From a virus, in IMG/VR virus record IMGVR_UViG_3300045988_174509: 64,000 bases of DNA; one strand, given 5' to 3'. The number at the start of each line of letters is the position of its first letter. Positions within the stretch are counted from its first letter, which is position 1. Of the stretch, positions 8,299 through 39,828 are shown piece after piece. The position numbers and the translations under genes are program-made. The notes under the pieces were generated by a model that was not told where the DNA came from, did no database searches, and saw nothing but the letters and a program-made list of their open reading frames with translations.

Positions 8299-9003
8299 AT
8301 GAAAACAAATATCCCGCATTACTGCATTGTAGTGGCCACGGTCAACCAGGACGGCCTTTTCCCGGACAAGACTCCGACTCTTTTTCATTATACACTGAAC
8401 TACCTGAAGAATGTCGGTGTGAAAAAAGAGGACATCCTGGTTCTTGGAGACGATGTTTCCTGCATTGCCTACGCGTCCTCCCTGGGACTTGCCTGCTCTC
8501 AGGTGGAATCCAAAGACATTATCAAGAAGTGTATTGAATCCGCGAGTCAGAGACTCAAGGAATCAGGGAATCCCTTTTCCCTGGTCCTTCTTCAACTTGA
8601 CAATCCTGCCCGGGAGCACGATCTGCTGGAGCAGGTCATCATTACCTCCAAGGCCAAGCCGGAGCAGGATATTGAGGTAGCCCATAAAAATCTTTATTCC
8701 GACGGCGAGCATGCTGATTGGAGGGCCCGTACGAGCGTGTCCCTGTACGCTGTCTGGTACACTCAGGACCTGGATGAATACTACAAAACTCAAGACGAAA
8801 TCATTGGCTTCCCAGCTCCTGCTTATTATGTATTTCAAAATACGTTTTGCGGAAGCTCCTACGTCCAGTCCGAGTACCATTTCAACAAGGCAGTGACGGA
8901 TACGATTGTGGAAGAAGCCTACAAAATGTCCGTCGTCACCGCCCTGGGGGATGAAAAGTATCCCCGAGTTGTTTTGATTGACACGGTTGAAAAATCCAAC
9001 TAA
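8299..9003 (+). CDS. Hypothetical protein, possible nucleotide-sugar transferase fold
   Basis: N-terminal CIVVATVNQDG..L pattern is reminiscent of the GT-A N-terminus (VIIPtYNe). Confidence 0.3.
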   Translation: MKTNIPHYCIVVATVNQDGLFPDKTPTLFHYTLNYLKNVGVKKEDILVLGDDVSCIAYASSLGLACSQVESKDIIKKCIESASQRLKESGNPFSLVLLQLDNPAREHDLLEQVIITSKAKPEQDIEVAHKNLYSDGEHADWRARTSVSLYAVWYTQDLDEYYKTQDEIIGFPAPAYYVFQNTFCGSSYVQSEYHFNKAVTDTIVEEAYKMSVVTALGDEKYPRVVLIDTVEKSN

Positions 9004-16591: not shown

Positions 16592-16628
16592 GCCTACCAT
16601 GCCTCGGTGTGGTAGGCTTTCTTGTATT
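16592..16628 (+). terminator. Intrinsic terminator
   Basis: Stem gcctacca/tggtaggc plus tttcttgtatt. Confidence 0.5.
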
Positions 16629-16675
16629 CGGAGCGCAACACAGCTCCAACCTGTTTACATACCTCATATTACATT

Positions 16676-25600: not shown

Positions 25601-26845
25601 AGCCGGGCGGCGGGGACTGCCGCCGCCGTGGTAGCCCAGGAAGAAATCCTCCGCTTCCTCTTCCAGTTCATGGCCCAGGGTGCCCTCAAGCTTCTGGATA
25701 AGGACGATCAGGTCCAGCTGATTACCAACGCAGAAGTCATGAAGACCGCATCCAGGCTCGGACTGATCCCGGACTACGACAAGTTCGGCACCAACCTGGG
25801 GTTCTTCAACAAGGGCACGGGGCGGTGGAGCTACATGAACCTGGAGTATGCCGCTCCGTTTAAGAACGTAGCCTCCCTGGTCAGCAGTGCCTGGAAGATG
25901 GCAACGGCGGAAGATGAAGGAAAGAAAGAAGGCTGGGATGAAATGGAGAACCTGATGGAGAGCACCATAGGGAGCCCCTCCATGCTCCTGTCTCTGATGA
26001 ACACCTACCTATTCGACCCGAACGACAAGTTCAACTACAAGGCCGCGCCGGAAAAATCAGGGAACATCAGCCTTGCGGATGCCGTGGGGAATGCCGCCCT
26101 GATTTCCTTCGGGTTCCAGCCAAGCCTGGGACATGGCTACACCTACAAGCCCCTGGAGCGGATCGCTACGGCGATCAACAAGGAGACTCCCGTCTGGTCT
26201 GCGGTTTCTTCCATCCTCCACCAGAGCTTTGAGGATGATCCCAACAACGTGTGGTATGAAACAGCCCTGAAGCATGCGGGGTTTGGCATGCGCCATGGCA
26301 AGTCCTTTGTGGATGCCGCCGCCAACGGGGTGAAGACCGCCAAGGTTTCCGACAACCACGCCAAGCGGCTCCGTGTTCTCAGTGAAAGGTATCTGGATAT
26401 TCCTATTGACACCCTGAAAGAGTTCACTACCTTTGACATAGCCCAGAGGAAGGAAGCCTATGCAGACCTGGGGAGTACGCTTAACGGGATCAAGGCCCTG
26501 ACTGAAACACTGTACGGAACCACCGCCGGGCGCACTGCCTTCCGGGATATTCTTGACCGGAGCAATGTCAGCCTGAAGACTGCGCGCTGGGCCATGCGCG
26601 GAGTCATGCCGGAGGTGATCACCAAGGACGCAGTAGTGAGTGCCTTTGAACGGCTGGACCGTGAAGCCCGGAAGCCGGGAACCAGTGAAGCCCGGAAGCC
26701 GGGAACCAGTGAAGCCCGGAAGCAGAGAATCCAGGAGCAGAAGAAACTCATCCGCCGGGTTTACCGGGAACGGGGAGTCAAGGTAACAGACCAGATGGAA
26801 TCTGCAAGTACGTATAAAACGTTATTTAAAAATCTGGAGCAATAA
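16676..26845 (+). CDS. Giant (~3,390 aa) Ala-rich coiled-coil protein with an internal HExxH motif; candidate virion-packaged/ejected or tape-measure-like protein
   Basis: Single uninterrupted ORF. N-terminal EAR(A/Q)E(R/K) repeats, a central FIHEAVHLVDQH motif and C-terminal EARKPGTS x2.6 repeats. The ATG at 16676 is preferred over the track's TTG at 16622, which lies inside the upstream terminator. Confidence 0.6.
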   Translation: MAIDFSTLGPIQPGLDARQESQARARTNFAQRQEDRGRTKAVEPLKAMADFDSLLAKELGSLEKTQKTEARQEKTEARAERSEARAERSAERAETSFEQGQKKWDWALNDRAREEANRDLAKITKSSTSGINAQSIEELEDWVKTPETELYDLKTASSDENALGIIASRLGVEKIEGALPTPTTSEDVETPPYFLSRQGLALRPDGSYIVTNKFIDSVARSKADSSKLASAVSKQLNAGVKASNRDGLSSTPITATATEEEIKEMIDTIRSGDKKVHAAVKAIYDKHIPEDKKTQASEAQTETETPEAQEGKTPVGEPGSGGSSADETPGNFTSTVLDEAEWLATNPAKFTELTQQYLNSLVEQGMNAPEVQRAELAGQRAVARENYIRGVETLLERTFQDVDPKEAGEALRNEARVAEKVLDMYGGAPAEALAQIERRTEELAKAHPGNESLRNQDKAKAIYEYLDSVIPGFNASGAEADALQQIVEENIVGATKTPSLNDAATAAMRHYRSSLGQVSDMTGTVMEGATRFNIPGLRYENKSDDEATRNPLEKMTWEPGKGGWKFGFKRSNGSMEDSFSISYEGLRSYMAEHKLNQQDALNSIAFPTTLGDVAYAKDGLLFARNPYTGEVEENATLAMNPTALYDNSLYQKSLEGLRSSGMSDEEIAAVDKKYQDAKARSAAETVQGLLQTYSEMQSMAELTGSETLGKILEPDSSVDFRIFHARMKRDRMSDTFILEQWNDKEEQWDRQVQRVIQGTQRKAVDMGVTAGLAIAQQLNGVLGPRDSAATLSNQWKIVNESREAATRVTQSNLFTEWGTELAFLAVQMAGTGAAGIAGRTAGEALATQGIRRVAAGMALRSQAAATVARPGIAQSAEVAFSRTMEGIVHGATRSWGATAGTQAAIFSQVAPYAYGDIFSTQLDRAIKHAETLPQDQRGAYLSDAQNLANLRATAGAVIVGMASMAINSRAGMNTFITKSVGGKTWVPESIKKFRQGSSTIASKVTGNTTRERLSSFGALSTKEKVLYMGNKLYQGGKLAVEGAAEELTDEFSEWLWTSLVKDGYIAEDQIGTTAEIAAAAVKIAVLGAIGEVTASRLPGARESVPPEILAQAQRADVGIKPEETLHALNAISIDMRTELETKQGTLAQTIATAGDSAVEVLNTNLSEPVKAEYVEGNKAVAAKAGEIVDNISNAPVYVNELAAEVGGEALTPGVLEAWTQNSIVLGAQNVTLLRSFAQNLKEEIATASPEGRARLVENALSNITERMINPTPEKKEIMRSMVDQIAEIYNEAPVELTQVDDSLNFMPTGNETVDVIGEVASMAGPAAVTTGVATEAPAPPIQIPQLPGASALDTNAEVEVLGTRMPVRDIAPVKPEPLESPTAPPLAELTDASLSGPLDSASPEAREWATQVITGLESFDPETAQWITKGREATTLTDAEVARMVTLNQLTGPAAPLTVDDTGRTLVTEPNAIRYNNRAPAEIAGELNDYQSQVLSFMPEKSGDGLALVDRFLSTQEITPQERRVLESVREYLRKNNLGFGVSRIHTDMIESWNAPALVDFADPDSPLMVVNTLFAPVAGDFKNTFIHEAVHLVDQHQRMTNPDYGNQLRSMKLALRENWNELVGILEKESQQAPDNESRLAIETAIEDMAYGLDISEAQAVANNDNEFASVLLSNPVFRHLASQMKEGGESITFEDLSSPATLAALAESVTPPSSFLGRVFESLKNVFNKILGRYKNLEKDNFSLLKDMGEEWTAWKERHSEAARKLDEAAPLDGSRWLIPDDPTAMKNTGYQDAGLILRTQGQQIPTPTADTGTAFSPTRYGFMGEVGGNLGENWFNLTMAGARQAATWFNMGAAKFGYQKAINKLDSQQVPVFTEQDSLRVREQMTAQDMGQRYVIQQVHQIANWVNAMKLKPEEQKSLAIAIRDYVGNTDNLARPKEIQRIYADTQTQLQQAAVDRDRAVAAAKEGVVRTKAAYEKELAAIVGRIRESTSEGVILGLRSGLDTARRFIRDKSMPPKNDALAQMQALMIARQQEVNQINEQVKAFKAASPEFADGVDLLRREVIANLNEALAGELDLAARQISRDLAEGETSPVELLKEIRNSLGLKDIGKLGDMGSAIEKAVKNYRKLALASAPEAANALHNIALAQERAGREIAQANAVYEGRTRRAGYDSKGIYHPAGTIYQNRDFRIEQEQRHMQAEYLKRRERASELLNQYPAIKQRLTRARKQIAQNQYDIYSFLGSEAGRLSAADMNWLHRTYLAVGAGNADAYRKAMMEALENPQGKKVSEYQLARIYSATRAYIEENNSKVNGYISTVVDRMKNYAALYDRLTDSGIQVDGKPSTYSDLFKGIPGVESLQQGILKFLNENYSEMQILSDLKHGDNMVEIVDKALAVSRYLGDQHPGERKKLRDQLNQIKRHQADYARDAFLLESMGVEEHDLRGFITSAEDTAELAARLEQTGWVDSRTVKTIMDAPEATMSQRVTALIDYLRAKADLQMQRLGLGYTIDPEKLTSMNRTSLRKGMVELANQAFASTLSKKRSTENPLALRKNLPLSERIILGELGDASVSEATGLIEASLSYQKDTLVNTVMSDEAANTFLKLGLVTARPKGDEDVLLSFKNSHSKLNGTYASHELADSLYRIFRPTDDVMANESTWPGIKKYWSTNSVGTIQKLGGMANIAVLIKSPASTLRNLYGTAMQGINSGIWFPAYGLKEVSGMAVDLVRMWKLERAAKDNTLAGREAQEKLLEAEERWSKKIKHYYDLGLLDNDTMQVFRNLWKSEEFQKAIEGKIDLTLDESDGLTDIVVGDRKERTLANRTFRFLTTGIMKGATVAYSIPDAMAKIANYTHEVRNSRNLMAVQLERAKLTEESKRTPWQKELVEASADENKWNALVEHTAADRTKNLFPTGTRTPKWVKTVGLVALPFFMFQYHTANSVAYNLGYMVQELQEGTWALRNGMTKEGSKLMAKALSRAAGTAAAVVAQEEILRFLFQFMAQGALKLLDKDDQVQLITNAEVMKTASRLGLIPDYDKFGTNLGFFNKGTGRWSYMNLEYAAPFKNVASLVSSAWKMATAEDEGKKEGWDEMENLMESTIGSPSMLLSLMNTYLFDPNDKFNYKAAPEKSGNISLADAVGNAALISFGFQPSLGHGYTYKPLERIATAINKETPVWSAVSSILHQSFEDDPNNVWYETALKHAGFGMRHGKSFVDAAANGVKTAKVSDNHAKRLRVLSERYLDIPIDTLKEFTTFDIAQRKEAYADLGSTLNGIKALTETLYGTTAGRTAFRDILDRSNVSLKTARWAMRGVMPEVITKDAVVSAFERLDREARKPGTSEARKPGTSEARKQRIQEQKKLIRRVYRERGVKVTDQMESASTYKTLFKNLEQ

Positions 26846-29455: not shown

Positions 29456-30014
29456 CTATTTTAACAGCCTCAAAAAATTCATAGTCAAGCAGTTCAGATA
29501 GAGGAAGGCTCCCACATTCTAAAGGTTCGTCAAATCCATTGATATTCTTCCAGTAATAGTGGCCTGAAACTTTTAGAAGTTTAAGAAGCGAAGTAGTTCC
29601 AGTCTGGGGGTTTTTTAGTTTGACAAACTTGCCAGACATCATCAAGTCAATAGCTTTTCCTATTGTGATGGACCTCTCATATTGAATCTCTGCTTTTAAA
29701 TGGAATCCATTTTTAATAGTTTCAGGAGCCCAGTTAAGAAAGGTTTGTAATTCTGAAAAATATACTGGGTTTTCCTCTGAATCTTTCATGACGCTGACTA
29801 TGACCTGTACAAACTGGTTCTTACAGTTGCGTTTTATTTTTCTTAGCTTCCCATTAAAGAACTGATACAGAAATTGATCCCCAGGCTTATGAGTAAACAG
29901 GATTTCCAGACCCTCCTTAAATGAAACAGGGTTGGACAAGTAAACTCCAAAATTTTTACATTGAAAATATTCTTTAAGAGAATTCATAAAAATTATAGTT
30001 GTTAAATTTCTCAC
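29433..30014 (-). CDS. Hypothetical protein (193 aa)
   Basis: ORF. Confidence 0.4.
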   Translation of the reverse strand: MRNLTTIIFMNSLKEYFQCKNFGVYLSNPVSFKEGLEILFTHKPGDQFLYQFFNGKLRKIKRNCKNQFVQVIVSVMKDSEENPVYFSELQTFLNWAPETIKNGFHLKAEIQYERSITIGKAIDLMMSGKFVKLKNPQTGTTSLLKLLKVSGHYYWKNINGFDEPLECGSLPLSELLDYEFFEAVKIDDQEEKI

Positions 30015-30426
30015 GAGTTGCCATTATATCATAGGAGTCAGTTTCTATAATGAGTCCTTTCAAGGCATCACAAATTCTAATATCTTTGAACCTATGAGAA
30101 TAGATTGCCAGCCTCTTCCCTGTCACTAGCTTTTCAACAGCCGCGTCAAAGGCAAGAGCCTTGGCCAATGGAAGGACAGTATCCAAAACAAATCCTTCTT
30201 CCTTTAGTTGAGGATCAAACTTGGCCGGGGCTACCTGAGAATAGAGAACCGAACCATTAGGGAGTCTTGCACACTTTCTTTCCATGAGGGCCCCTTCATC
30301 GTAATCAAAAATGTAGCGGACCGCATAGGAATCTTTTTCCGCGACATGTCGATAAAGGCAATGCACGCCGTTCGGGTTAGTCAGGGCGCAAAGACCCTCT
30401 TTAAATGTATAATGTTTAGTGTCCAT
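29974..30426 (-). CDS. Hypothetical protein (150 aa)
   Basis: ORF. Confidence 0.4.
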   Translation of the reverse strand: MDTKHYTFKEGLCALTNPNGVHCLYRHVAEKDSYAVRYIFDYDEGALMERKCARLPNGSVLYSQVAPAKFDPQLKEEGFVLDTVLPLAKALAFDAAVEKLVTGKRLAIYSHRFKDIRICDALKGLIIETDSYDIMATREKFNNYNFYEFS

Positions 30427-30766
30427 CAGGGTTACGGGTTAGGTTGTCAAAGTATTTTATTCCATCATCAGAAATTATGTAGGCTTTAGGAAAGGTATCA
30501 GGAACTAAAAGGACAAGACCAATGCGCCTCAATGAGCTCAGATACTTTCCAATGCTTGCCCGGTCAACCAGATTGGCCGCGGCAATTTCTTTTACAGTCA
30601 CAGCGGCAGGCTGGAGAAGGATAAAGCAAAGCAGTTTCACTTCCTTGTGCCGGAGTATGCAGTTACGGTCGTAATGGGCAAAGTAATTAAACAGCAGGCG
30701 AGCCTTCGGTTTCACCCGCTCCATTAGGTCCTTCTTTTTTCTCTTCCAGTTTAGCATATGTTTCAA
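30416..30766 (-). CDS. Winged-helix DNA-binding protein
   Basis: AVTVKEIAAANLVDRASIGKYLSSLRRIGLV reads as HTH plus wing. The true start may be the internal Met at 30724. Confidence 0.4.
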   Translation of the reverse strand: MKHMLNWKRKKKDLMERVKPKARLLFNYFAHYDRNCILRHKEVKLLCFILLQPAAVTVKEIAAANLVDRASIGKYLSSLRRIGLVLLVPDTFPKAYIISDDGIKYFDNLTRNPDGH

Positions 30767-31244
30767 TAATTTTTTGTTTAGATATGACCCCCTTCATCAG
30801 CAGGAGAGGAATGGCGTAATTTGTGCATTCAGTAATGTGCTTCTTCTTCTCTTCCGGATTCCCGGTCAGCTTGTATAGCTGACATCCGAGGAGCAGAACG
30901 ATTGCGTTGACGAGGATATTAGGGGGACAGATTAAATCAGTTTTCCCCCAGTCCTCTTCCAGCACCTTGACAGATTGCTCTACCAAATCACACCCGGCAT
31001 TCAGGCAGGCATTCAGGAGTCCGTTCACTTCCTCCTCATGGAAGACTTCCCCCTCCCCAAAACTGTAGAGAGCCATGGCATTTTTCTTAATGCCCTCTAT
31101 GTCCTCGGGCCCCTGGATAGGAGGAAGGGAGTTGACCAGGGTGCTGAGGAGCAGAGCCTGATCATTCACTTTCTTTTTTCTGTCCGCTTCCATTTTTTCA
31201 CAGGTGTGATCCAACTTCTTCTGGAGTTTTGTTTTCTTTTTCAT
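30687..31244 (-). CDS. Hypothetical protein (185 aa)
   Basis: ORF. Confidence 0.4.
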   Translation of the reverse strand: MKKKTKLQKKLDHTCEKMEADRKKKVNDQALLLSTLVNSLPPIQGPEDIEGIKKNAMALYSFGEGEVFHEEEVNGLLNACLNAGCDLVEQSVKVLEEDWGKTDLICPPNILVNAIVLLLGCQLYKLTGNPEEKKKHITECTNYAIPLLLMKGVISKQKIIETYAKLEEKKEGPNGAGETEGSPAV

Positions 31245-31885
31245 TTAATAGGTCTTTGAAAATGAGCGCATAGACGTTCCGCCAGGAACATGGGGATTCT
31301 AAAAAGAACCTCCACCAAACCTTTGGTAAATTCCTTAACCCTTTCTTCCTTTCCTTCCTGGTCATTGCCCTCCGTATCAAACAAATTTTCGACATGGCAG
31401 GTATTAACAAAACCAACATGGATCAAATAAATTGAAAGAAGAAGAGTCATCTTTATCACTTTGGGAGGTATTGAACCCTCCCCTCTACTCATGGTCTGAT
31501 GAAGTTCAATAAGAGACATAAGCTGGGAAATTTTAGGAAGCCTGAGAATAAACTCAAGCAAATCTATGCTCGCCATGAAAACTTTTTCCCTCATGTAATC
31601 AGGTCCGAGAACCTTGACTTCAAGATCGTATTCCTCAAGGATCGAATTCAAAGTAGAACACCAGACTTCCTCTATCTTGATCTGGTTTTCTTTGACCCTT
31701 AGATCAAAGTCCTTCTCAGTGCAATTCTCTTTTGACTCCCTTAAAGATTTTATATCTTTGAAAAACTTTCCGAATCCGGAATTAAAATCTTCCATGCTGA
31801 AAGCCAGACCTTTACGGAAGACCAGATTAAGCAGATCATCATTGATCTCGCCCCATGTAATAGCAGTTTTTTCTGTTGTATTCAT
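31241..31885 (-). CDS. Hypothetical protein (214 aa)
   Basis: ORF. A 31-aa mini-ORF (31886-31981, -) sits between it and the upstream conserved element. Confidence 0.4.
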   Translation of the reverse strand: MNTTEKTAITWGEINDDLLNLVFRKGLAFSMEDFNSGFGKFFKDIKSLRESKENCTEKDFDLRVKENQIKIEEVWCSTLNSILEEYDLEVKVLGPDYMREKVFMASIDLLEFILRLPKISQLMSLIELHQTMSRGEGSIPPKVIKMTLLLSIYLIHVGFVNTCHVENLFDTEGNDQEGKEERVKEFTKGLVEVLFRIPMFLAERLCAHFQRPIK

Positions 31886-31997
31886 ATTGTACTAATGGTT
31901 AATAACGTCAAGGAATCCGGGAATCTGGAATTCACGGAACCAGGAGGTCAAAAACTCCTTGGCTTGCATTAAGGTAAGTAACTTCATGATGATTTAT

Positions 31998-32010
31998 GTT
32001 GAGGTTCTAA
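31998..32010 (-). promoter_or_regulatory. Conserved element, variant TTAGAACCTCAAC (- strand)
   Basis: Lies 10 nt upstream of a 31-aa mini-ORF ATG. Confidence 0.4.
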
Positions 32011-32024
32011 CAAGTTCTAGTGGT

Positions 32025-32597
32025 TTATCGCAAGAAGTAGATAGTACATGGGGAACCCGGAATCAGGGAATCAGGGCGCGTCCAGACCTTCAAAGGCTTT
32101 AATACCGAATAGGCGGACCGGACATCGTAAAGCATTTGAGAAAGATACAGGAGCACCTTTTCAAAACTGCTCACTTGAGCGGCCCCGATTACAACATTGC
32201 GGTTCTGGCTTGAGACTTCAATGAAATAACATCCCCGCTCTTCCATCTTGTACACGTCCGCTTTGATCACTTCCTTGAGAGGGAGAGCCAGCTCATTCTT
32301 CTGGGGCTTCCCCGCCCATCTAAGGCCAAGGATATGGGAGGCATGCGGACCAAGAACCTTATCAACCTCCTTCTTTATAAGCTTTGACACTGCATCCATC
32401 ACGATCGTAAGGTCTTCATCCGTGTCAGATGGGGCCGGAGTAATGAATTGATCTATGGCAAGATAATTGGTAGGGGCCTGAAAGGTGCCGGAGAAATGAA
32501 TCCTCGCTTCATATCCCGGCAGGTCTTTGGTGATCTTCTTCCATGCCCCCAAAGCTGCCCGAAGGAATTTCCAATCGGCATCATTAAATTTAATCAT
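32025..32597 (-). CDS. Hypothetical protein (190 aa)
   Basis: ORF preceded (- strand) by the TTAGAATCTCAAC element. Confidence 0.45.
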   Translation of the reverse strand: MIKFNDADWKFLRAALGAWKKITKDLPGYEARIHFSGTFQAPTNYLAIDQFITPAPSDTDEDLTIVMDAVSKLIKKEVDKVLGPHASHILGLRWAGKPQKNELALPLKEVIKADVYKMEERGCYFIEVSSQNRNVVIGAAQVSSFEKVLLYLSQMLYDVRSAYSVLKPLKVWTRPDSLIPGSPCTIYFLR

Positions 32598-32988
32598 GAT
32601 TTTTAATGGCTGTTTTACGTTGAGATTCTAAAGACAGCATTTCTTTTACAAGTTGCCAGCAAGAAAACAGGTATTGAACTACCCTGTCCATCATCTTGAC
32701 TGCTGATAAAAGAAGATGGCTTACAGATACATAAACGAAGAACACGGCAAGCACATTTAAAAGCAGGGCCATTAGCTTGTCTTCGTTGATCAGGTGATGA
32801 ATGCTAAACCCAAAAACACTTCCTTCAATGGCGGCTAGAATCCAGCACCATGATATCCATAATTCAAGAGTCTTGTGAAGGAAATCTCTGAGTTTCCCTG
32901 CCTTCAGGTACAGGCCAAGACAAGCGTTCGCCCGTTCGGGCAATGGAAATCTCAGAAGATACTTGCTCAGAAGTTTATGCGGTTTCAT
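32590..32988 (-). CDS. Membrane protein (132 aa, 3 predicted TM helices)
   Basis: Hydrophobic helices. ATG directly abuts the TTAGAATCTCAAC element. Confidence 0.45.
   Translation of the reverse strand: MKPHKLLSKYLLRFPLPERANACLGLYLKAGKLRDFLHKTLELWISWCWILAAIEGSVFGFSIHHLINEDKLMALLLNVLAVFFVYVSVSHLLLSAVKMMDRVVQYLFSCWQLVKEMLSLESQRKTAIKNHD
32619..32631 (-). promoter_or_regulatory. Conserved element TTAGAATCTCAAC (- strand)
   Basis: Lies 22 nt upstream of the ATG of gene 32025-32597. Confidence 0.45.
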
Positions 32989-33250
32989 GTTGAGATTCTA
33001 AAGGGGTTAAGCACACGTGGATATGCCGGGCGGTTCCCGGGGCTTTGAGCTCCAGCTCAAAGCCCCCTGCCAGTAGCTTGCGGTTTGCTTTCCGCAAGTC
33101 GGCAAGAAGGAACCTGCTGTTTTCTACCAGGATTTTTCTTCTCCCATCAGAAAAAATTTCAATGGCCCCCATGGTGTGATGCGCCTGAAAGAATTCGTTT
33201 AGGATTTCTTTCACTTCCTGTTCTGTCAGTTTATTTGAATGGTAAAGCAT
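32975..33250 (-). CDS. Hypothetical protein (91 aa)
   Basis: ORF. Confidence 0.4.
   Translation of the reverse strand: MLYHSNKLTEQEVKEILNEFFQAHHTMGAIEIFSDGRRKILVENSRFLLADLRKANRKLLAGGFELELKAPGTARHIHVCLTPLESQHETA
32989..33001 (-). promoter_or_regulatory. Conserved element TTAGAATCTCAAC (- strand)
   Basis: Directly abuts the ATG of gene 32590-32988. Confidence 0.45.
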
Positions 33251-33584
33251 GACTCTTTGATCATCTGTAGGGTTGGAATAATTTACAGGGGCTCATAGTG
33301 GTCCCTAAAATAGAACCGCCTGCCCTGAAAGAATCATTCAAAAGATTATCCATGATCTGCTGGCTCTTGATAAAATTGATATGACTCCTTATCAACTTTT
33401 GGGACTCCATTGAAAGGATTCTTGAGCGTAGAATGTGGAAGTTCCCGGCTTAAATGGGTTTTTGGTATTCATGATTATGATTTCTTTCTATTTAGTATTG
33501 GTTAGCGCGGCGATCTTGCCGCATGTCTTCACTGTAGTAAACTGATCTGTTTTTACAAGATATTTTTCAAAAAAATTTTCTTAC

Positions 33585-33599
33585 GTTGAGCTTCTATAA
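33585..33599 (-). promoter_or_regulatory. Conserved element, variant TTATAGAAGCTCAAC (- strand)
   Basis: Lies downstream of gene 33611-34597. Confidence 0.35.
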
Positions 33600-33610
33600 G
33601 TTATGCAATT

Positions 33611-34597
33611 CTATTTCATGTAGAATTTGAATTTTGTCTCACCCTTTTCAGAATCTTCCGTCACTCGGATGCGCTTCAGAAGGAACGGGAAAACTTCGTT
33701 GCACTTGGCTTCCACCTTGTCGAGAATTTCCGTTGGAACTTCAGGCATTTCAGGACTGGGAGATTTCCAGACAAGATAGCCGTAATATTGTGTGAAGGGA
33801 ACAAAGGAAGCACTTGCTCCAACTTCCTTTCCGAGCTCCTCGAATATTGCATTCACGTCCTGACTAAGCACAGAATAAAATTCCTGCATTTTTTCAAGGG
33901 CGTCATCCAAGCAAAGATTCTCTACTTTATGGAACACGTACTGGGAAAGGTTCCCCTTCTCATTTACCACAAGATTTTTATTCAGGGATCGCCACACACA
34001 CACCTTATATTTTCCCGGTGCACTGTCTTCCATGTGCTGAACCGTAAGGAAGAAGGGAGCGGAAGGAATCCTGATTGCCAAGTCACTTTCCAGAATCCGG
34101 GAAGCATGAAGCCTTTCAATGGGAATCCGGGGAACAGAAGTCAGGGGACCAAGGGAGAGAACAATAGAAAGGTTCCGTTTATAATTGTTAAACTTCTCTC
34201 TTGGAGAATTTTCTTGGTAGAACTCTTCTATTTTTTCAATCTCTCCTTCCCGGGAGAAGAACGCAAGCACTCTTTCATGGTCATTTGTTATTTGAGCATG
34301 CGCCTTGCGTGTCTCGAGAGTTGGATTGAAACAATGCGATTCAACCCATACCGAATATTCTCTTGGCTTTTTTAGCCGGAGAATGAGACGGATAGCTCTT
34401 TCATTAGGTTCAAACAAGCCATAGTAGCGAAGTGACAAGGTTTTCATTTCTCCTTCCCGCGGATTTTTCCGCTTAAAGGTGACGCGGAACAACTTTCTAG
34501 GATTGGCTTCAGGGATTCCATAAGGCTTTACGCCGTTCTTCTCCCATTTAACGCTGAAAGAAATATCCATGCCTTCGAGTAATGATTCAGTTTCCAT
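33611..34597 (-). CDS. Hypothetical protein (328 aa)
   Basis: ORF. Confidence 0.45.
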   Translation of the reverse strand: METESLLEGMDISFSVKWEKNGVKPYGIPEANPRKLFRVTFKRKNPREGEMKTLSLRYYGLFEPNERAIRLILRLKKPREYSVWVESHCFNPTLETRKAHAQITNDHERVLAFFSREGEIEKIEEFYQENSPREKFNNYKRNLSIVLSLGPLTSVPRIPIERLHASRILESDLAIRIPSAPFFLTVQHMEDSAPGKYKVCVWRSLNKNLVVNEKGNLSQYVFHKVENLCLDDALEKMQEFYSVLSQDVNAIFEELGKEVGASASFVPFTQYYGYLVWKSPSPEMPEVPTEILDKVEAKCNEVFPFLLKRIRVTEDSEKGETKFKFYMK

Positions 34598-34637
34598 ATT
34601 ATTTTTAGGTTCTATATATTAGAGGTTCTTTTATTTA

Positions 34638-35087
34638 TTAGCGTTCTTCTCTTTCAGTTTTGATCTTTATGCTACCTTCGGAAGGAATTTTAGCGATTCT
34701 AAACGCAAAATAATAGCCTTTATCCGCATCATGGTAAGAAAAGTAATCCTCCAAGCTACTGGTGAAGACCTTTTCCATATTCTCCGTATGTAGCAGGGGG
34801 AGAATGCCCTCTCCTATATAAAACTGAAGAGATTGAACGCCTGCCATTAAATCCGTTTCAGCTATCACCTGATCTTCAATCACTTTCCCGGTTCGTTCTT
34901 CAACAATTTTCCTTAAATTGCATTCAAGAAGATAGCCAAACCATTCCAAAGGATCAGTAAAATATTCATCCGTAGCCGTTTCATTGGCAAGCTTCAAGCA
35001 ATAATCTCTTACATGCTCCGATTTGCTTTGCCTTGCCATGTCAATCAGCTTCCTAATGGCGGCAAGCCTGTATTCATTTATGTTCAT
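34638..35087 (-). CDS. Hypothetical protein (149 aa)
   Basis: ORF. The 5' region carries the conserved element plus a perfect 24-bp palindrome. Confidence 0.45.
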   Translation of the reverse strand: MNINEYRLAAIRKLIDMARQSKSEHVRDYCLKLANETATDEYFTDPLEWFGYLLECNLRKIVEERTGKVIEDQVIAETDLMAGVQSLQFYIGEGILPLLHTENMEKVFTSSLEDYFSYHDADKGYYFAFRIAKIPSEGSIKIKTEREER

Positions 35088-35123
35088 TATATTTAGTCCC
35101 TTTCTACTTGTTTTTTGATTCCG

Positions 35124-35147
35124 GCGGGCAGGAAATTTCCTGCCCGC
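35124..35147. promoter_or_regulatory. Perfect 24-bp palindrome GCGGGCAGGAAATTTCCTGCCCGC
   Basis: Self-complementary sequence in the 5' region of gene 34638-35087. Confidence 0.6.
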
Positions 35148-35162
35148 ATAGAGATTCTAAAA
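35148..35162 (-). promoter_or_regulatory. Conserved element, variant TTTTAGAATCTCTAT (- strand)
   Basis: Lies upstream of the palindrome and gene 34638-35087. Confidence 0.4.
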
Positions 35163-35969: not shown

Positions 35970-35984
35970 ATTGAGATTCTATAA
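35970..35984 (-). promoter_or_regulatory. Conserved element, variant TTATAGAATCTCAAT (- strand)
   Basis: Directly abuts the ATG at 35967. Confidence 0.45.
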
Positions 35985-37280
35985 TCAAGATTGTTTCTTT
36001 GTAGACCGCCCCCTTGTATCAAACGCCGGGATATTTAATTTTCTCCTTGCTTTTCCGATAACTTGTATTGATTTGCCTGTTTTATTAGCGACTTCTTTAT
36101 CAGTCATTGTGCCCAGCAGGGATTTAATGTATTCGTCCCCTTCTATTGTTTCTTGCAAGCTTTTTTCCTCACGTAATGCCGGAACATTCAATTTCTGTCT
36201 AATTCTTCTTACTGCCTCGTCATCAATATTAAATTTTTCGGCTATTACTCTATCATAAACTTTCCCAAGCATAGATAAGAGTTTTTTACGTTGGTCCGGT
36301 GAAAATCTTTCTAAAATGCTTTTACTGAAAGGCTTAATTTTGTTCTGTTCTCTAAATTTTTTAATTACATATACGCTGTACCCTGTTTTTTTTGCAATTT
36401 TTAAATCTGATACTCTTCCCAATAAATTAAGAATTATATCCTTGTCCGCATCCTTAATGGGAGCTGGAGCAATTTTTAATTTTCTACGGTTCCGCGCTAC
36501 AACATTAAGCGATATTCCAAGCCTTTCAGCAATTTCGCTATCAGGAATTTTCCCAAGCATGGATAGCATTTCTTCGCGTTTCTCTTCGGGGATTTTAGTA
36601 TCAGATAATGATAGAATGCCCATCTTTTTTCTAATAAGCGCAATTCCTGCCTTGGAATAACCGAATTTTTTAGCAATTTCATCATCCGGGGTCTTTCCAA
36701 GCATGTTAATTAACTCTTCGGGATACTCTTTTTTCTTGTGTGGTTTATTTGGGTCTCGTGGCTGACGGGGTTTACGCGGCCCCCTATATGACTTAATCCC
36801 TAATTTCTTTCTAAGGTAGGCTACTCTGGAATTTGAGTATCCAAACTTCTTGGCACACTCCGAGTCAGGAATTTTTCCGAGCACTGCAATAAGCTCTTCA
36901 TCGTGTTGGATGCGGATTGCTTCAGGGCTGCAATACTTTTTGATACCTAATTTATAGCGTTCAGTCTGGACCGTGACGCGCGCTATTCCGAGTAGCTCGG
37001 CGATTTCCAGGTCAGGTTTTTTGCCCAACATGGACCGCATTTCTTCACGCTGTTCGTGAGAAAGAATGCGGTGAAACCTCTTTTCTCGGTATTTTTCATG
37101 CAATAACTCCATGAGCAATTGCATGTATTCAGGCGTGGGATGTGGTTTTTTAGTATTTAGCCACTTCCAAACAGCATCTTCCGTCACCCGCATCATCTGC
37201 GCGGCCCTTTTTACAGCTTGGGTAGGACTTGGGAGATTGTTGGCCGTTTGAAGCCAGTCGATAAATTCTTGTGCGGTCAT
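35985..37280 (-). CDS. Protein with ~85-aa N-terminal domain plus seven tandem ~46-aa sigma-region-4-like HTH repeats
   Basis: Seven copies of the pattern LG(K/R)xPDxEIAxKxGxSxxxVxxxRxKLxI: ELLGIARVTVQTERYKLGI, KKFGYSNSRVAYLRKKLGI, KKFGYSKAGIALIRKKMGI, ERLGISLNVVARNRRKLKI, KKTGYSVYVIKKFREQNKI, EKFNIDDEAVRRIRQKLNV, NKTGKSIQVIGKARRKLNI. Confidence 0.6.
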   Translation of the reverse strand: MTAQEFIDWLQTANNLPSPTQAVKRAAQMMRVTEDAVWKWLNTKKPHPTPEYMQLLMELLHEKYREKRFHRILSHEQREEMRSMLGKKPDLEIAELLGIARVTVQTERYKLGIKKYCSPEAIRIQHDEELIAVLGKIPDSECAKKFGYSNSRVAYLRKKLGIKSYRGPRKPRQPRDPNKPHKKKEYPEELINMLGKTPDDEIAKKFGYSKAGIALIRKKMGILSLSDTKIPEEKREEMLSMLGKIPDSEIAERLGISLNVVARNRRKLKIAPAPIKDADKDIILNLLGRVSDLKIAKKTGYSVYVIKKFREQNKIKPFSKSILERFSPDQRKKLLSMLGKVYDRVIAEKFNIDDEAVRRIRQKLNVPALREEKSLQETIEGDEYIKSLLGTMTDKEVANKTGKSIQVIGKARRKLNIPAFDTRGRSTKKQS

Positions 37281-37321
37281 GGTGAGAAAGGAGGGGCGGC
37301 AATGCCGCCCCTGGGGGTTAT

Positions 37322-37648
37322 TTAGTGAGCTTCAACGCGGGAAGCGTCCTGCGTCCAGTTGAGGTTTTCTCCTTCAATTTCTTCGCCCGTCATTTGTTCA
37401 AAGACCATGTAGATTTCAACCTTGTTCCCTTCTGCATCATAGCCGGGAGCAGACCATTCTTCCATATAACTGCCGTCTTCGTATTTGTCCGCATAGGAGC
37501 CAGGGAAAACCCTGTTGGTGTATTCCATCTGGCGCGCTGCATAGTAGGTCTTGCCTTCGAACTTGTAGCTGCCAAATTCACGTTCAAGAGCGGTCAGGTT
37601 GATTTCTTCTCCGTCTTCCGTGGTGATGATTTTGTTATCGTTCATCAT
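37322..37648 (-). CDS. Small highly acidic, Tyr-rich protein (108 aa, net charge about -15); candidate DNA-mimic/anti-restriction early protein
   Basis: 24 D/E against 9 K/R. It is the first gene downstream of the strong leftward promoter and has an AAAGGAA Shine-Dalgarno sequence. Confidence 0.45.
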   Translation of the reverse strand: MMNDNKIITTEDGEEINLTALEREFGSYKFEGKTYYAARQMEYTNRVFPGSYADKYEDGSYMEEWSAPGYDAEGNKVEIYMVFEQMTGEEIEGENLNWTQDASRVEAH

Positions 37649-37782
37649 TTTTGTAATTCCTTTCTTTCAGGTTTTATTCTTGGCAGGGCGTTGCGCCCTT
37701 GCATGATTTTTTGATAGCATTACGGAGGGTTCCGTTCAACCGATTTTTTGCAGGGAGCCGGCAAGTGATTTAAAATGAAAGG

Positions 37783-37810
37783 ATTATAATTGTGTCATAC
37801 AAGGTGTAAA
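37783..37810 (-). promoter_or_regulatory. Strong sigma70-type leftward promoter
   Basis: On the - strand: -35 TTTACA, a 16-nt spacer, then a perfect -10 TATAAT. It lies ~125 nt upstream of the acidic-protein gene. Confidence 0.55.
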
Positions 37811-38570
37811 AAAGTGTGAAAAGGTGCTTGCAATGTAAAAATCCGGCATTTGCGGCACAAAAATCCAGCGTCAAAATCAGGCATGGGGGAGTATCGTAAA
37901 AAGTACAATAAGCCATGAAGCCGGGAAACCCGGGTTCCGGGTTCCGGGTTTGGAGGATTAGGCAATAATTGAGGCAGGTGCAAAAGCAGGAATGATTCAT
38001 AAAATTTTATGGCTGGTGTCCCATATTTGAGCCGGATTCCATAAAATTTTATGGAACTTTGGACAGTTTCAGGGTGTCAGGTATAAAATTTTGTAAAAGC
38101 AGGGAGAGGCGGGTGCAGGGCGTCAGGGTAACTTAGAATCAGGGAGTCAGGGGATCAGTTTGGAGGATTAGGCAAGAATTTGAGAAGAAAGGAAGGCCCT
38201 TCTTTTCTTCTCATATCATCAACGTATCATGATATGTTGATATGTTATGATTCACAAGCAAGCCCGCAATTTATACAGGCGTATAAATATGCACCCCTGA
38301 ACCCCTGATTCCGCCCTTCCCTGCACCCCGCTTCACACGTCAAAAAATACAATAACCCCCCTATTTCCGGCTATGGAAAAATTCAAACGTAACATAATGG
38401 ATTGAATCTTAACGTCTAGCACGTTCATACTTCGCATAATATGTGTAATGCAAAATCGGAAGCACGATTCAGGCATAACAAGAAAATACATAAGAAGTTA
38501 TGAAGGAAATTACCCTGAAATTGGAAGCCGATTTCCGCCATACGGGAGGTTTACAGGGCCAGGGGTTCAA

Positions 38571-38613
38571 GGTTAGAGTGGCTCAAAGGTTCAGGGTTCG
38601 AGCAACTCTAACC
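38571..38613. other. Imperfect hairpin
   Basis: Stems ggttagagtggctc / gagcaactctaacc with one mismatch and a 15-nt loop. Confidence 0.4.
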
Positions 38614-38625
38614 CGGAATCAGGAA

Positions 38626-39100
38626 ACATACCACCACGGTTGAGGGGGCTCACGGGTTCAGCGAGTGGAGGTATAAATCTTTGGGTCGGGAATGCCCTGG
38701 AGGAACCATTTTTGGAGAAAGGGGGATGTATGGACCTAGAAGGCGGGTTTACCCCCAGTTGGGTACTCTGTACCGGACCTACCCCAAAACACAGTTTTAG
38801 GCGACCACCCTACATGAAAAAACCGTATTCTGGCATGAGCATGGTTCCCAGGCATGCGTAAAGGGCGGATACCACCACGGGGGAAGGGGTGGAACTTGGG
38901 AACCGGAAAGGGCGGGATCAGGGGTTCAGGGGGTCGGAAAAAATCGGTGAAAACGGAAAAATGGGAGGTATGGACCTAGAAGGCGGGTTTACCCTCTTTC
39001 CGCTACAGAGTACTGGACCGACCCCAAAACGCAGTTTTAGGCGACCACCCTACATGAAAAAACCGTATTCTGGCATGAGCATGGTTCCCAGGCATCCTCG
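38626..39100. repeat. Two tandem ~240-bp degenerate direct repeats
   Basis: Both copies start ATACCACCACGG. They share ggtatggacctagaaggcgggtttaccc and a 75-bp core (ccccaaaac[a/g]cagttttaggcgaccaccctacatgaaaaaaccgtattctggcatgagcatggttcccaggcat) identical except one base. Confidence 0.8.
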
Positions 39101-39298
39101 CGTGCGCATGCGCGTAGGCATGGGCATGGGCTGGCAGGGGTCGGCATACATGTCGGAAGAAAGGTCGGAAAAAGGGTCGGCATGAGCGGGGCTCGCCTAC
39201 GCATACGCGTACGTACGCGCACATGGCCCGCGTCACCCGCGCATGTGTGGGCATGTGCAGGCGTATGCGCTCGCCCGCCTCAGCGCGCCCAGGAAACT
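39100..39298. repeat. GC-rich GCATG-laden imperfect inverted-repeat block containing 4x GTCGG at exact 12-bp phasing
   Basis: cgcgtgcgcatgcgcgtaggcatgggcatgg at 39100-39130 is inverted relative to cgcctacgcatacgcgtacgtacgcgcacatgg at 39193-39225. GTCGG occurs at 39140, 39152, 39164 and 39176. Confidence 0.6.
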
Positions 39299-39400
39299 TT
39301 TATAATTCAATATTATAATAAAACCCATATATATATATATAGTATTTTTTAACTTTTTTATTTTTAGGGTTCTTGTATTGATTTTTAACGAGTTATGAAG
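39299..39400. other. AT-rich block with a (TA)7-8 run; candidate DNA-unwinding element
   Basis: Contains ttttataattcaatattataataaaacccatatatatatatatagtattttttaactttttta. Confidence 0.45.
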
Positions 39401-39495
39401 ACGGATTTTGTGAAGTGAAAAGTCAGAGCCCCTTTTCACATGCCTTGACAAAAATGGAAATATGTATGAATTTGGTCTTTTTTATACTTTAGAAA

Positions 39496-39510
39496 TTAGA
39501 ATGATTCTAA
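39496..39510. promoter_or_regulatory. 15-bp palindrome TTAGAATgATTCTAA (inverted pair of the TTAGAAT half-site)
   Basis: Arms ttagaat/attctaa are perfectly complementary. Confidence 0.5.
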
Positions 39511-39532
39511 AAACTTTTACATACTTTTTTTA

Positions 39533-39735
39533 TCGACATTTTTACGACATTTTTACGACGTTTTTTTGACCCCATTTTTGACCCCATTTTTGACCCCATT
39601 TTTGACCCCATTTTTGACCCCATTTTTGACCCCATTTTTGACCCCATTTTTGACCCCATTTTTGACCCCCTGAATCCGTGATTCCGCCCTCCCGTTCCAC
39701 CTCCATTTTTGACCCCCTGAATCCGTGATTCCGGA
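39533..39735. repeat. Iteron array: 3 x cgacattttta (11 bp), 9 x gaccccattttt (12 bp) and 2 x ccctgaatccgtgattccg (25-bp-class direct repeat)
   Basis: Direct reading. gacccc occurs at 39568, 39580, 39592, 39604, 39616, 39628, 39640, 39652 and 39664, with a tenth copy at 39711. Confidence 0.85.
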
Positions 39736-39779
39736 TACCTCCGGACCCCCGTCACCGGAAACCCCTTTTTATTTTTCTC

Positions 39780-39807
39780 TTGACAGGATTTCCGTCCGGA
39801 TTATCCT
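39780..39807 (+). promoter_or_regulatory. sigma70-type promoter for the primase gene
   Basis: -35 TTGACA at 39780-39785, a 16-nt spacer, then -10 TATCCT. The ~15-nt leader has no Shine-Dalgarno sequence. Confidence 0.45.
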
Positions 39808-39828
39808 GGCTCCACATTAATACATCCC

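Follow-up and report, generated by a model that had tools for sequence, protein, structure and literature searches.

A 431-aa protein encoded in a 64-kb stretch of viral DNA (hereafter the window) carries seven three-helix helix-turn-helix (HTH) modules of the GcrA/Myb type behind an N-terminal HTH-like domain. The explanation that we favour, at a probability of roughly 55%, is that this protein is accessory, laterally exchanged and nuclease-free, and binds multiple subsites in the DNA of the host or of competitors. The evidence comes from the architecture of the repeats, from the movement of the gene between phages, and from the poor fit of the protein to the repeat DNA that surrounds it.

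The gene and its surroundings

The multi-HTH gene lies exactly where an initial annotation of this DNA had placed it (Table 1), and its product is strongly basic (pI 9.92, net charge +35). The same annotation had described it as the second gene of a leftward operon, which fits both the order of the reading frames and a promoter-like site located ~130 bp upstream of the neighbouring gene for an acidic 108-aa protein. No solved relative of the fold of this acidic protein was found. We read the position of the multi-HTH gene at the head of the leftward operon as a sign of early expression. The promoter-like region is conserved in a sibling phage (L026) that itself lacks both genes, and the site belongs to the phage backbone, not to the exchanged segment described below. 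Rfam and tRNA scans returned nothing from the 2.1-kb non-coding region of the window. Close homologues of the 431-aa protein number 26, with identities of 47-98%, and the dN/dS of the gene against divergent orthologues is 0.23-0.28, a ratio that points to purifying selection.

Table 1. Positions of the features discussed, in window coordinates
Feature	Position	Strand	Basis or remark
Multi-HTH protein gene	35985..37280	minus	ORF list; ATG start, 431 aa
N-terminal domain, four-helix HTH-like, aa 1-73	37062..37280	minus	AF2 secondary structure
HTH repeat 1, aa 74-118	36927..37061	minus	motif, repeat HMM, AF2
HTH repeat 2, aa 123-167	36780..36914	minus	motif, repeat HMM, AF2
Pro/Arg/Lys-rich linker PRKPRQPRDPNKPHK, aa 168-182	36735..36779	minus	disordered in model
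HTH repeat 3, aa 183-227	36600..36734	minus	motif, repeat HMM, AF2
HTH repeat 4, aa 231-275	36456..36590	minus	motif, repeat HMM, AF2
HTH repeat 5, aa 276-320	36321..36455	minus	motif, repeat HMM, AF2; zero linker after repeat 4
HTH repeat 6, aa 327-371	36168..36302	minus	motif, repeat HMM, AF2
HTH repeat 7, aa 378-422	36015..36149	minus	motif, repeat HMM, AF2
Acidic 108-aa protein gene, upstream in cassette	37322..37648	minus	pI 4.2
Laterally exchanged two-gene cassette	35984..37647	minus	blastn of window vs loci
Promoter-like site TTTACA-16-TATAAT	37783..37810	minus	11/12 consensus matches
Four GTCGG at 12-bp phase	near 39140-39181		
Palindrome TTAGAATGATTCTAA	39496-39510		
12-bp tandem array, unit TTTTTGACCCCA	39563-39669		8.9 perfect copies

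Seven tandem HTH repeats

The motif LGxxxDxxIAxxxGxSxxxVxxxRxKLxI occurs in seven copies, with the leucine of LG at residues 85, 134, 194, 242, 287, 338 and 389. Pairwise identity among the seven 45-aa units averages 35% (range 20-53%). Each unit is recognised by an HMM of the other six (E 1.4e-13 to 1.6e-22), and the repeat HMM gives the whole protein 503 bits but none of 200 shuffled copies more than 7; the seven repeats are far beyond chance. Linkers between repeats measure 0-6 residues, apart from one of 15 residues rich in Pro, Arg and Lys that is longer in several orthologues, and only 9 residues follow repeat 7. AlphaFold2 (mean pLDDT 74.8) models helix-turn-helix-turn-helix in all seven repeats; confidence is low for several linkers and, at a pTM of 0.30, for the geometry between repeats. 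The initial annotation had claimed seven tandem HTH repeats and had proposed structure prediction as a check, and its claim is upheld by motif, repeat HMM, Pfam and AlphaFold2. The third helices carry charges of +1 to +5. The description supported for this protein is that of true DNA-binding HTH modules of three helices, arrayed in tandem and with basic recognition helices.

The N-terminal domain is of a different make. Its helices are modelled at residues 2-12, 18-29, 33-41 and 50-65, and within the last of these lies the helix LLMELLHEKY (aa 52-63, M52-Y63), where the family alignment has its longest invariant stretch. The domain weakly matches YdaS_toxin, HTH_29 and PHROGs of phage regulators, and it occurs four times in the protein P0005.

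Repeats r1 to r7 are collinear across orthologues. Across 440 units, the scaffold hardly varies, and the variable positions (28-30, 32, 33, 36 and 37 of the unit) lie on the third helix. In the mechanism that we propose, the basic third helix of each module would be placed in the major groove. Because the recognition helices vary among the seven repeats while each stays conserved across orthologues, the array would most likely read one or more long, asymmetric composite sites of several tens of bp, not a series of identical iterons.

Likeness to known DNA-binding proteins

Among Pfam families, the protein passes HTH_23 (40.8 bits, cut-off 24.6), whose best stretch is aa 244-266 inside repeat 4, and HTH_28 (30.8 bits, cut-off 25). 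Sigma70_r4_2 is borderline, with a score summed over repeats (26.1 bits, cut-off 25.7), and Sigma70_r4 (17.2 bits, cut-off 24.1) and GerE (14.5 bits, cut-off 23.5) fall short. The initial annotation had likened the repeats to sigma region 4 or LuxR C-termini. Of this, relatedness in fold to sigma region 4 is supported, the general three-helix HTH fold being common to the repeats and to both sigma70 region 4 and LuxR-GerE. No Pfam or NCBIfam match to sigma region 2 or 3 was found in the 431-aa protein, and TIGR02937 (22.1 against a cut-off of 42.9) is a local match to a single HTH. Repeat 7 locally matches the FapR HTH (E 3.9e-8, aa 392-425), and in sequence the repeat profile weakly matches both the sigma54 RpoN-box domain and the FapR HTH.

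The strongest PHROG is phrog_323 (E 1.1e-23), which matches three stretches, the best at aa 175-270. Its label, 'transcriptional regulator, D5-like', is putative and would fit a phage-directed regulator too.

The repeat region also matches homing-endonuclease and HNH-endonuclease PHROGs and the PADLOC HEase model. Pfam gave no match to a GIY-YIG or HNH catalytic domain, and the N terminus bears no nuclease trace. Membership of a defence system was considered and rejected, as PADLOC returned just weak HEase (E 0.0011) and Csa3 (E 0.014) matches in the HTH region. A GIY-YIG protein of Vibrio phage 1.170.O (AUR92327.1) has the same tandem repeat unit, LGTxxDxxLAxxxGYSxxTIxxRRxxLGIPxY, at 30% identity over three repeats (tblastn, E 3e-9). 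Like free-standing phage homing endonucleases, the window protein is phage-borne and mobile, and apparently it reads long asymmetric sites in a modular way. It differs in having seven repeats, against three seen in the incomplete record of AUR92327.1, and in being nuclease-free, an N-terminal Cro-like HTH replacing the catalytic domain.

The best structural match of the window protein is the DNA-binding domain (DBD) of GcrA, and the repeats share the fold of this family's N-terminal DBD. GcrA DBD binds as a monomer to a 7-bp site in the major groove and has sigma region 4 as its closest structural relative, and GcrA acts by binding both DNA and sigma70 domain 2 (PMC5887438). Caulobacter crescentus GcrA (PDB 5YIU/5YIW) has one DBD and a C-terminal sigma70-interacting domain, whereas in the window protein seven DBD-like units occur without a sigma70-interacting domain. 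Pfam GcrA (PF07750) is absent among its matches at E up to 10. The pocket through which GcrA reads m6A consists of R33, N34, I37 and G38 (PMC5887438). The I-G pair of this pocket (VIGK) is found only in repeat 7. The recognition helix of that repeat, SIQVIGKARRKLNI, resembles the GcrA sequence AVIGKVHRLGL, and in a hand alignment to GcrA, whose residue numbering agrees with PMC5887438, the R33-N34 positions presumably correspond to S-I, so that R33 and N34 appear not to be conserved. GANTC (GcrA-type) sites are not enriched in the window (314 against 289 +/- 19).

The three-helix fold is also that of Myb/SANT proteins (c-Myb R1R2R3, Reb1, SNAPc4, Cdc5/CEF1), whose regularly spaced Trp residues are lost from the window repeats. 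Myb proteins typically have two to five repeats; the window-type array has seven or more units and is of bacterial or phage origin. SANT-type relatives of the fold are protein binders rather than DNA binders, and the basic third helices of the window repeats are unlike theirs. A further parallel is offered by the TnsD-like target selectors of Tn7, mobile-element proteins with C-terminal multi-HTH regions, which recognise a long specific site through several HTH domains (PMC10293859). The window protein lacks a TniQ core, its gene has no transposition genes in the vicinity, and the parallel drawn here concerns the use of several HTH domains.

A mobile and dispensable cassette

The multi-HTH gene and its acidic neighbour form a two-gene cassette whose edges coincide with gene boundaries. 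In blastn comparisons of the window with other loci, 35984-37645 is 98.6% identical to L004-L010, the cassette is 96% identical to that of L012 and 83% to that of L001, and the remainder of the 64-kb window has nothing in common with the other-backbone loci. Backbone clustering places the cassette in at least four phage backbones, with no flanking DNA common to different backbones. Unrelated Akkermansia phages exchange the cassette without any DNA from its flanks. Two siblings of the window's own lineage (L026 and L027) have flanks that are 90-100% identical and lack the cassette, so the protein is not essential; relatives of a second backbone (L024 and L025) also lack the HTH gene, which is therefore dispensable there too. 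The acidic partner stands alone, without the HTH gene, in L021, L022, L024 and L025, and an obligate toxin-antitoxin or DNA-mimic pairing of the two proteins was rejected on this ground. In L001 and L015, the multi-HTH gene runs with an S24 repressor operon, and in L003 it lies on the sieB strand, opposite every other called gene. We read these orientations in temperate backbones as prophage-type transcription units. One lysogen with the cassette is the A. massiliensis strain that encodes WP_455564356.1.

This mobility bears on what the protein might bind. Because the cassette moves without its flanks and siblings do without it, the target is probably not a cis site of phage replication or packaging. 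More probably, it would be DNA common to all carriers, either the Akkermansia chromosome or competing mobile elements. By exclusion, then, we infer binding to host or competitor DNA, where the protein would act as a blocker or regulator.

Alternative readings

So many modules might instead serve to coat DNA. A low-specificity, nucleoid-associated protein of this kind could achieve host shut-off, silencing or DNA protection by avidity at many sites, and the net charge of +35, the eight DNA-binding modules, the flexible linkers, the early position of the gene in the window and the 'transcriptional regulator, D5-like' label of the best PHROG would all suit it. We nonetheless consider this unlikely. 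Each repeat position is conserved between orthologues but differs from the neighbouring repeats, and most of the variation falls on the recognition helix, as would be expected of proteins that read specific sequences. Further, the same module serves site-specific targeting in homing endonucleases.

Less probable again is a GcrA-like factor directed at RNAP, in which the helix at aa 52-63 would dock onto host sigma or RNAP while the HTH array tethered the enzyme to chosen DNA, by sigma appropriation or pre-recruitment. Such a factor would be in keeping with the structural match to GcrA, which binds sigma70 domain 2 as well as DNA, with the location of the longest invariant stretch on a non-repeat helix, a possible protein interface, and with two relatives, P0118, where the array is joined to an RNAP alpha-CTD-like domain, and the distant P0190, which passes the Pfam GcrA threshold (PF07750). 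However, the protein has no counterpart of the GcrA sigma-interacting domain and no match to sigma region 2 or 3, Sigma70_r4 and GerE remain below threshold, and the N-terminal domain resembles an ordinary Cro/YdaS-type HTH. The initial annotation's suggestion of a sigma-mimic finds no direct support, as these sigma-related domains are lacking; such a role is conceivable for the conserved N-terminal helix.

The initial annotation had also tied the repeat protein to repeat DNA, proposing a multivalent binder of the 12-bp array or of TTAGAAT elements that would act as an origin initiator, partition or packaging protein. The DNA features themselves are all present: the perfect nine-copy array (8.9 copies), the four GTCGG, and TTAGAAT, which occurs 14 times against 8.2 +/- 2.9 expected, a weak enrichment reached by 2 of 100 shuffles. 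The array shares a genome with the seven HTH modules, lies ~2.3 kb from their gene and adjoins a primase-helicase gene. Yet siblings L026 and L027/L028 keep the array, all without the multi-HTH gene, and at the other cassette loci, on other backbones, it is absent within 10 kb in either direction. On these grounds, the array is very unlikely to be a dedicated target of the protein. Neither co-inheritance of the gene with the array nor indispensability in the lineage was found: the cassette is transferred without flanking DNA, and the gene is dispensable in two lineages. Seven mutually different recognition helices are also a poor fit to identical DNA units. When 10 kb each side of the other loci was compared for k-mers of at least 14 nt common to backbones outside the cassette, five 14-mers were found, none clustered or repeated; we read these as chance level, in a comparison that short degenerate sites would escape. 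As an optional, swapped gene of a large uncharacterised family, this one is very unlikely to encode an origin, packaging or iteron-binding protein.

Equally improbable is a decaying homing-endonuclease remnant, a functionless hitch-hiker suggested by the presence of the module in GIY-YIG and HNH homing endonucleases and by the sharp edges of an insertion-like cassette, given the dN/dS of 0.23-0.28, a reading frame intact in many phages and prophages (one 90% cluster alone has 120 members), the active gain of repeats and the N terminus free of any nuclease-domain trace, and the same holds for a protein- or RNA-binding SANT-like scaffold, whose third helices would not be basic.

The wider repeat family

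Multi-HTH arrays, which the initial annotation had called rare, turn out to be common. The repeat is matched by 11,302 protein clusters (50% identity), of which 1,260 reach E 1e-30 or better, and arrays range from 4 to 19 units. Repeat number is gained by 144-bp duplications. Unit position 4 is Trp in 91% of wider-family units and Q, H, Y, K, D, Q and G in the seven window repeats. Sampled members are labelled only 'hypothetical protein' or, automatically, 'CsgD family', and our search of the literature on tandem-HTH phage proteins found no paper on this family. No characterised member of this large family was found.

In cultured phages, the repeat is confined to GIY-YIG homing endonucleases, where it lies in the C-terminal regions of enzymes from Vibrio and Pseudoalteromonas phages. 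Searching cultured phages with the window gave no match at the DNA level and one at the protein level, a Vibrio phage GIY-YIG nuclease. A pattern-based scan of one genome per species found no relatives, which does not prove their absence.

Implications

The analysis removes an appealing but very probably wrong link, in which a repeat protein was paired with repeat DNA from its own genome. Annotated relatives were found only in the targeting regions of phage homing endonucleases. We tentatively suggest, as a possibility well short of probable, that these proteins form a natural system of modular DNA recognition with a logic comparable to that of TALE or zinc-finger arrays. In such a system, a rigid 45-aa GcrA/Myb-like scaffold with a handful of hypervariable recognition-helix positions would read a few bp per unit, and arrays would grow and shrink by 144-bp duplication. 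Both phages and bacteria would use them to address long unique sites of hosts or rivals, with or without a nuclease. If this were true, the family could explain the choice of sites by homing endonucleases, and it might provide a new programmable scaffold.

Akkermansia is a gut bacterium of medical interest, and the two-gene cassette is passed around among its phages and prophages. A role in phage-host or phage-phage conflict is therefore probable.

An array of helix-turn-helix modules

The reading frame at 35985..37280 (minus strand; 431 aa) lies where the initial annotation placed it, and the motif LGxxxDxxIAxxxGxSxxxVxxxRxKLxI does recur seven times in its product, the multi-HTH protein. The repeats have diverged (mean pairwise identity 35%, range 20-53%), and no DNA-level tandem repeats are left inside the gene. 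Each is recovered by an HMM built from the other six (E 1.4e-13 to 1.6e-22), and with the repeat HMM the whole protein reaches 503 bits, whereas none of 200 shuffled copies exceeds 7 bits. With 26 close homologues and a dN/dS of 0.23-0.28 against divergent orthologues, the gene is real and under constraint.

Pfam assigns the protein to the HTH clan, with HTH_23 at 40.8 bits and HTH_28 at 30.8 bits; Sigma70_r4_2 scores 26.1 bits, barely above its cut-off of 25.7, and both Sigma70_r4 and GerE fall under the Pfam threshold. An AlphaFold2 model (16 homologues, mean pLDDT 74.8, pTM 0.30) predicts every unit as helix(~10)-turn-helix(~8)-turn-helix(~10), and the N-terminal 65 residues as a four-helix HTH-like domain. 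Low-confidence stretches follow repeats 1, 2 and 6; repeats 3 to 6 run on without such a segment, and confidence drops at the repeat 3-4 junction. The DNA-binding domain of GcrA is a three-helix bundle; as a monomer it contacts the major groove to recognise a site of 7 bp, and sigma region 4 is the structure closest to it (PMC5887438). The earlier label "sigma-region-4-like" is therefore acceptable as a description of fold, although GcrA/Myb-type fits more accurately. A canonical recognition helix is also supported at sequence level, by a local match to the FapR HTH (E 3.9e-8) and a weaker one to the sigma54 RpoN-box domain (E 0.0046).

In all, the protein lines up eight HTH-type modules and is maintained by selection. 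It is basic (pI 9.92, net charge +35), with +1 to +5 on the third helix of each repeat and neutral or acidic first helices. A protein of this charge might simply coat DNA with low specificity, which we consider unlikely. Among 440 aligned units, the near-invariant positions form a scaffold (W4, L12, G13, D17, A21, G25, V31, R35, L38, G39, I40), and the most variable positions fall in helix 3 (28-30, 32, 33, 36, 37) and helix 2 (18, 19, 22, 23). Such a pattern would be expected were every unit to read a DNA subsite of its own.

Repeat number ranges from 4 to 9 among homologues, and the order is collinear; repeats 1 and 5-7 are kept in most orthologues, and the central repeats 2-4 differ in number and type. 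Tandem DNA duplications of 144 bp (48 codons) within two orthologues show how units are gained (96% match in L015, 78% in L003). The L015 protein, P0005, has its N-terminal domain in four copies. Outside the repeats, the helix LLMELLHEKY (aa 52-63) holds more consecutive invariant columns than any other part of the family alignment. Through this N-terminal helix the protein could recruit RNA polymerase as GcrA does, a role that we find improbable.

Coordinates of repeats and associated features (window positions unless another contig is named)
Feature	Location	Remarks
Motif LG (position of L)	aa 85, 134, 194, 242, 287, 338, 389	multi-HTH protein
45-aa units	aa 74-118, 123-167, 183-227, 231-275, 276-320, 327-371, 378-422	multi-HTH protein
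144-bp tandem duplications	L015 11311-11631; L003 10394-10717	gains of whole 48-aa repeats
Basic Cys-rich protein	L001 8378-8947; L003 8813-9331; L015 8637-9206	two temperate backbones
Slot contents in siblings	L026 1982-2596; L027 240-345	204-aa gene; short ORF
Array region	39527-39735	just upstream of 1028-aa primase-helicase gene
Perfect palindrome TTAGAATGATTCTAA	39496-39510	intergenic
138-bp direct repeat	38718-38855; 38958-39095	89%
23-bp repeat GTTTGGAGGATTAGGCAA	37948; 38158	
CATAAAATTTTATGG	37650-39828	2 copies
GC-rich imperfect palindromes	39100-39270	
8-bp-period arrays, GAATCAGG-like units	8536-8572, 12743-12777, 32059-32076, 38136-38158, 38914-38932	short, scattered genome-wide
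18-bp tandem repeat	1-466	25.9 copies; higher-order periods 54 and 108 bp; inside open frame
3407-aa ORF	16622-26845 (+)	high-GC (0.55-0.59), strongly AT-skewed stretch

A mobile two-gene cassette

When the whole window was compared by blastn with all fetched loci, 35984-37647 alone was shared. This cassette comprises a gene for an acidic 108-aa protein and the multi-HTH gene, and its edges are start and stop codons. Its blastn identity to the window is 98.6% in L004-L010, 96% in L012, 83% in L001, and lower in the remaining loci. Loci L003-L017, except L015, belong to a different phage backbone, whose portal is Mu-like and whose small terminase is of the Sf6 type.

The multi-HTH gene occurs in at least four backbones. 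The first, that of the window, combines a leftward operon of unknown genes with a module of primase-helicase, PolA, SNF2-type helicase and PD-(D/E)XK nuclease on the right. In the second (L001/L015), the gene closes an operon headed by an S24 CI/LexA-like repressor and converges with genes for lysis and terminase. In the third (L003/L016/L017), it is part of a small islet on the plus strand, bordered by the terminase and a DnaB/DnaC-type module and opposite in orientation to the flanking genes; sieB of L003 is on its strand. In the fourth, the podovirus-like element of L018/L019, the gene stands close to the beginning of a long operon. Across the first three backbones the acidic partner (pI 4.2) shows 80-92% identity; it is replaced in L018 by a non-homologous acidic protein. 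Its family also occurs without the multi-HTH gene, in L021, L022, L024 and L025; the late region of L024, from terminase to portal, is 82-85% identical to L003, L016 and L008. The multi-HTH gene is optional, and is exchanged among phages with only their host genus, Akkermansia, in common.

In three loci the cassette is preceded, at 300-420 bp, by the gene for a basic Cys-rich, zinc-ribbon-like protein (172-189 aa, pI ~9.7, two CxxC...C pairs); no counterpart adjoins the cassette in the window.

The 12-bp array belongs to the phage backbone

Two sibling phages in IMG/VR are 90-97% (L026) and 97-100% (L027) identical to the window over 26-36 kb. At the position of the cassette, L026 has an unrelated 204-aa gene and L027 a short ORF, such that the slot immediately downstream of the leftward promoter varies among siblings. 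The two replacements have a motif in common, M-K-D-x-K-N-I-V-V-P-F-L, which in L026 lies ~20 residues past the annotated start.

The 12-bp array described in the initial annotation exists: three degenerate TTTTTACGACA-type units precede 8.9 perfect copies of TTTTTGACCCCA and two 31-bp repeats, CCATTTTTGACCCCCTGAATCCGTGATTCCG. Its proposed tie to the multi-HTH protein is not supported. Both siblings keep the array without the cassette, L026 with at least nine copies of a variant unit, TTTTTTGACCCC, reaching the contig end, and L027 with the exact window unit at the contig start; both contigs break within it. The array is absent from the stretches examined around every other cassette-carrying locus, and beyond the cassette the backbones share merely a handful of isolated ≥14-mers. 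The array is therefore part of the backbone, plausibly its replication origin or a regulatory element. These observations speak strongly against the proposal that the protein binds the array in origin, partition or packaging functions, and the heterogeneity of its seven recognition helices argues against a target of identical units. A binder of the iterons or of TTAGAAT in such a role is highly improbable, and the protein is probably not the origin, packaging or iteron protein.

TTAGAAT occurs 14 times in the window (8.2 expected), in 10 cases followed by C (TTAGAATC). The leftward operon 29516-35160 contains seven copies on the minus strand, including two with the longer motif TTAGAATCTCAAC in common; one copy lies 6 nt before the ATG at 32988. 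The sequence [AT]TCAGG is found 165 times on both strands, against ~62 expected with equal base frequencies. Window 37650-39828, 2.1 kb, is dense in repeats and without convincing genes, and has no Rfam or tRNA matches. At the left end, one frame of the 18-bp repeat encodes hexapeptides of the type GNAKVY/GDAEVY, and the rightward gene block with the 3407-aa ORF occupies the left part of the window.

A large family with homing-endonuclease relatives

When 1.84 billion representative proteins were searched by HMMER with a profile of the repeat (45 positions), 11,302 matched at E<=0.001, of which 1,260 reached E<=1e-30; the matches listed have 5 to 19 repeats each. The view that multi-HTH arrays are rare is therefore wrong. 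Look-up of the ten best matches gave source labels for five. Two bear the automatic name 'DNA-binding CsgD family transcriptional regulator'; the rest are listed as 'hypothetical protein' and come from Pseudomonas guariconensis (19 repeats) and Thermoanaerobaculia MAGs. Genomic context was examined for two distant members: one belongs to a phage-like-looking contig of 86 kb made up of small unknown genes, and the other is surrounded by Planctomycete-type chromosomal genes.

Homing endonucleases are the only annotated relatives found for the family. Among cultured phages (50,697 records), the module occurs only in Vibrio phage GIY-YIG/'homing endonuclease' genes and in an unannotated stretch of Pseudoalteromonas phage J2-1. 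In Vibrio phage 1.170.O (AUR92327.1), a nuclease domain precedes three copies of LLGTxxDxxLAxxxGYSxxTIxxRRxxLGIPxY. In keeping with this kinship, the multi-HTH protein matches the PADLOC HEase model as well as PHROGs of homing and HNH endonucleases. The targeting repeats of these enzymes are homologous to those of the multi-HTH protein, which lacks the nuclease domain. We regard it as very unlikely that the protein is an endonuclease remnant without function or a SANT-like scaffold for binding proteins.

A proposed role

We favour, at a probability of roughly 0.55, an accessory array that binds a long composite site in host or rival DNA and blocks or regulates there. Helix 3 of every unit would enter the major groove, and the array would follow several tens of bp of an asymmetric composite site. 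As this site would appear neither to travel with the cassette nor to be a backbone-specific cis element, it would probably be located on the chromosome of Akkermansia or on competing mobile elements. Binding may serve repression, exclusion or protection; such a role fits a gene that heads the leftward operon in the window and that is oriented with the repressor operon or sieB in temperate backbones. Within this reading, DNA binding is very probable, and a host- or competitor-directed target is tentative.

The fold, tandem HTH readers as an idea, and the homing-endonuclease module are already known. A stand-alone, nuclease-free, high-copy array, its mobile-cassette behaviour in Akkermansia phages and the size of the family appear to be uncharacterised. 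We speculate that the family may be a modular DNA-recognition system, for which it is a reasonable if doubtful candidate.
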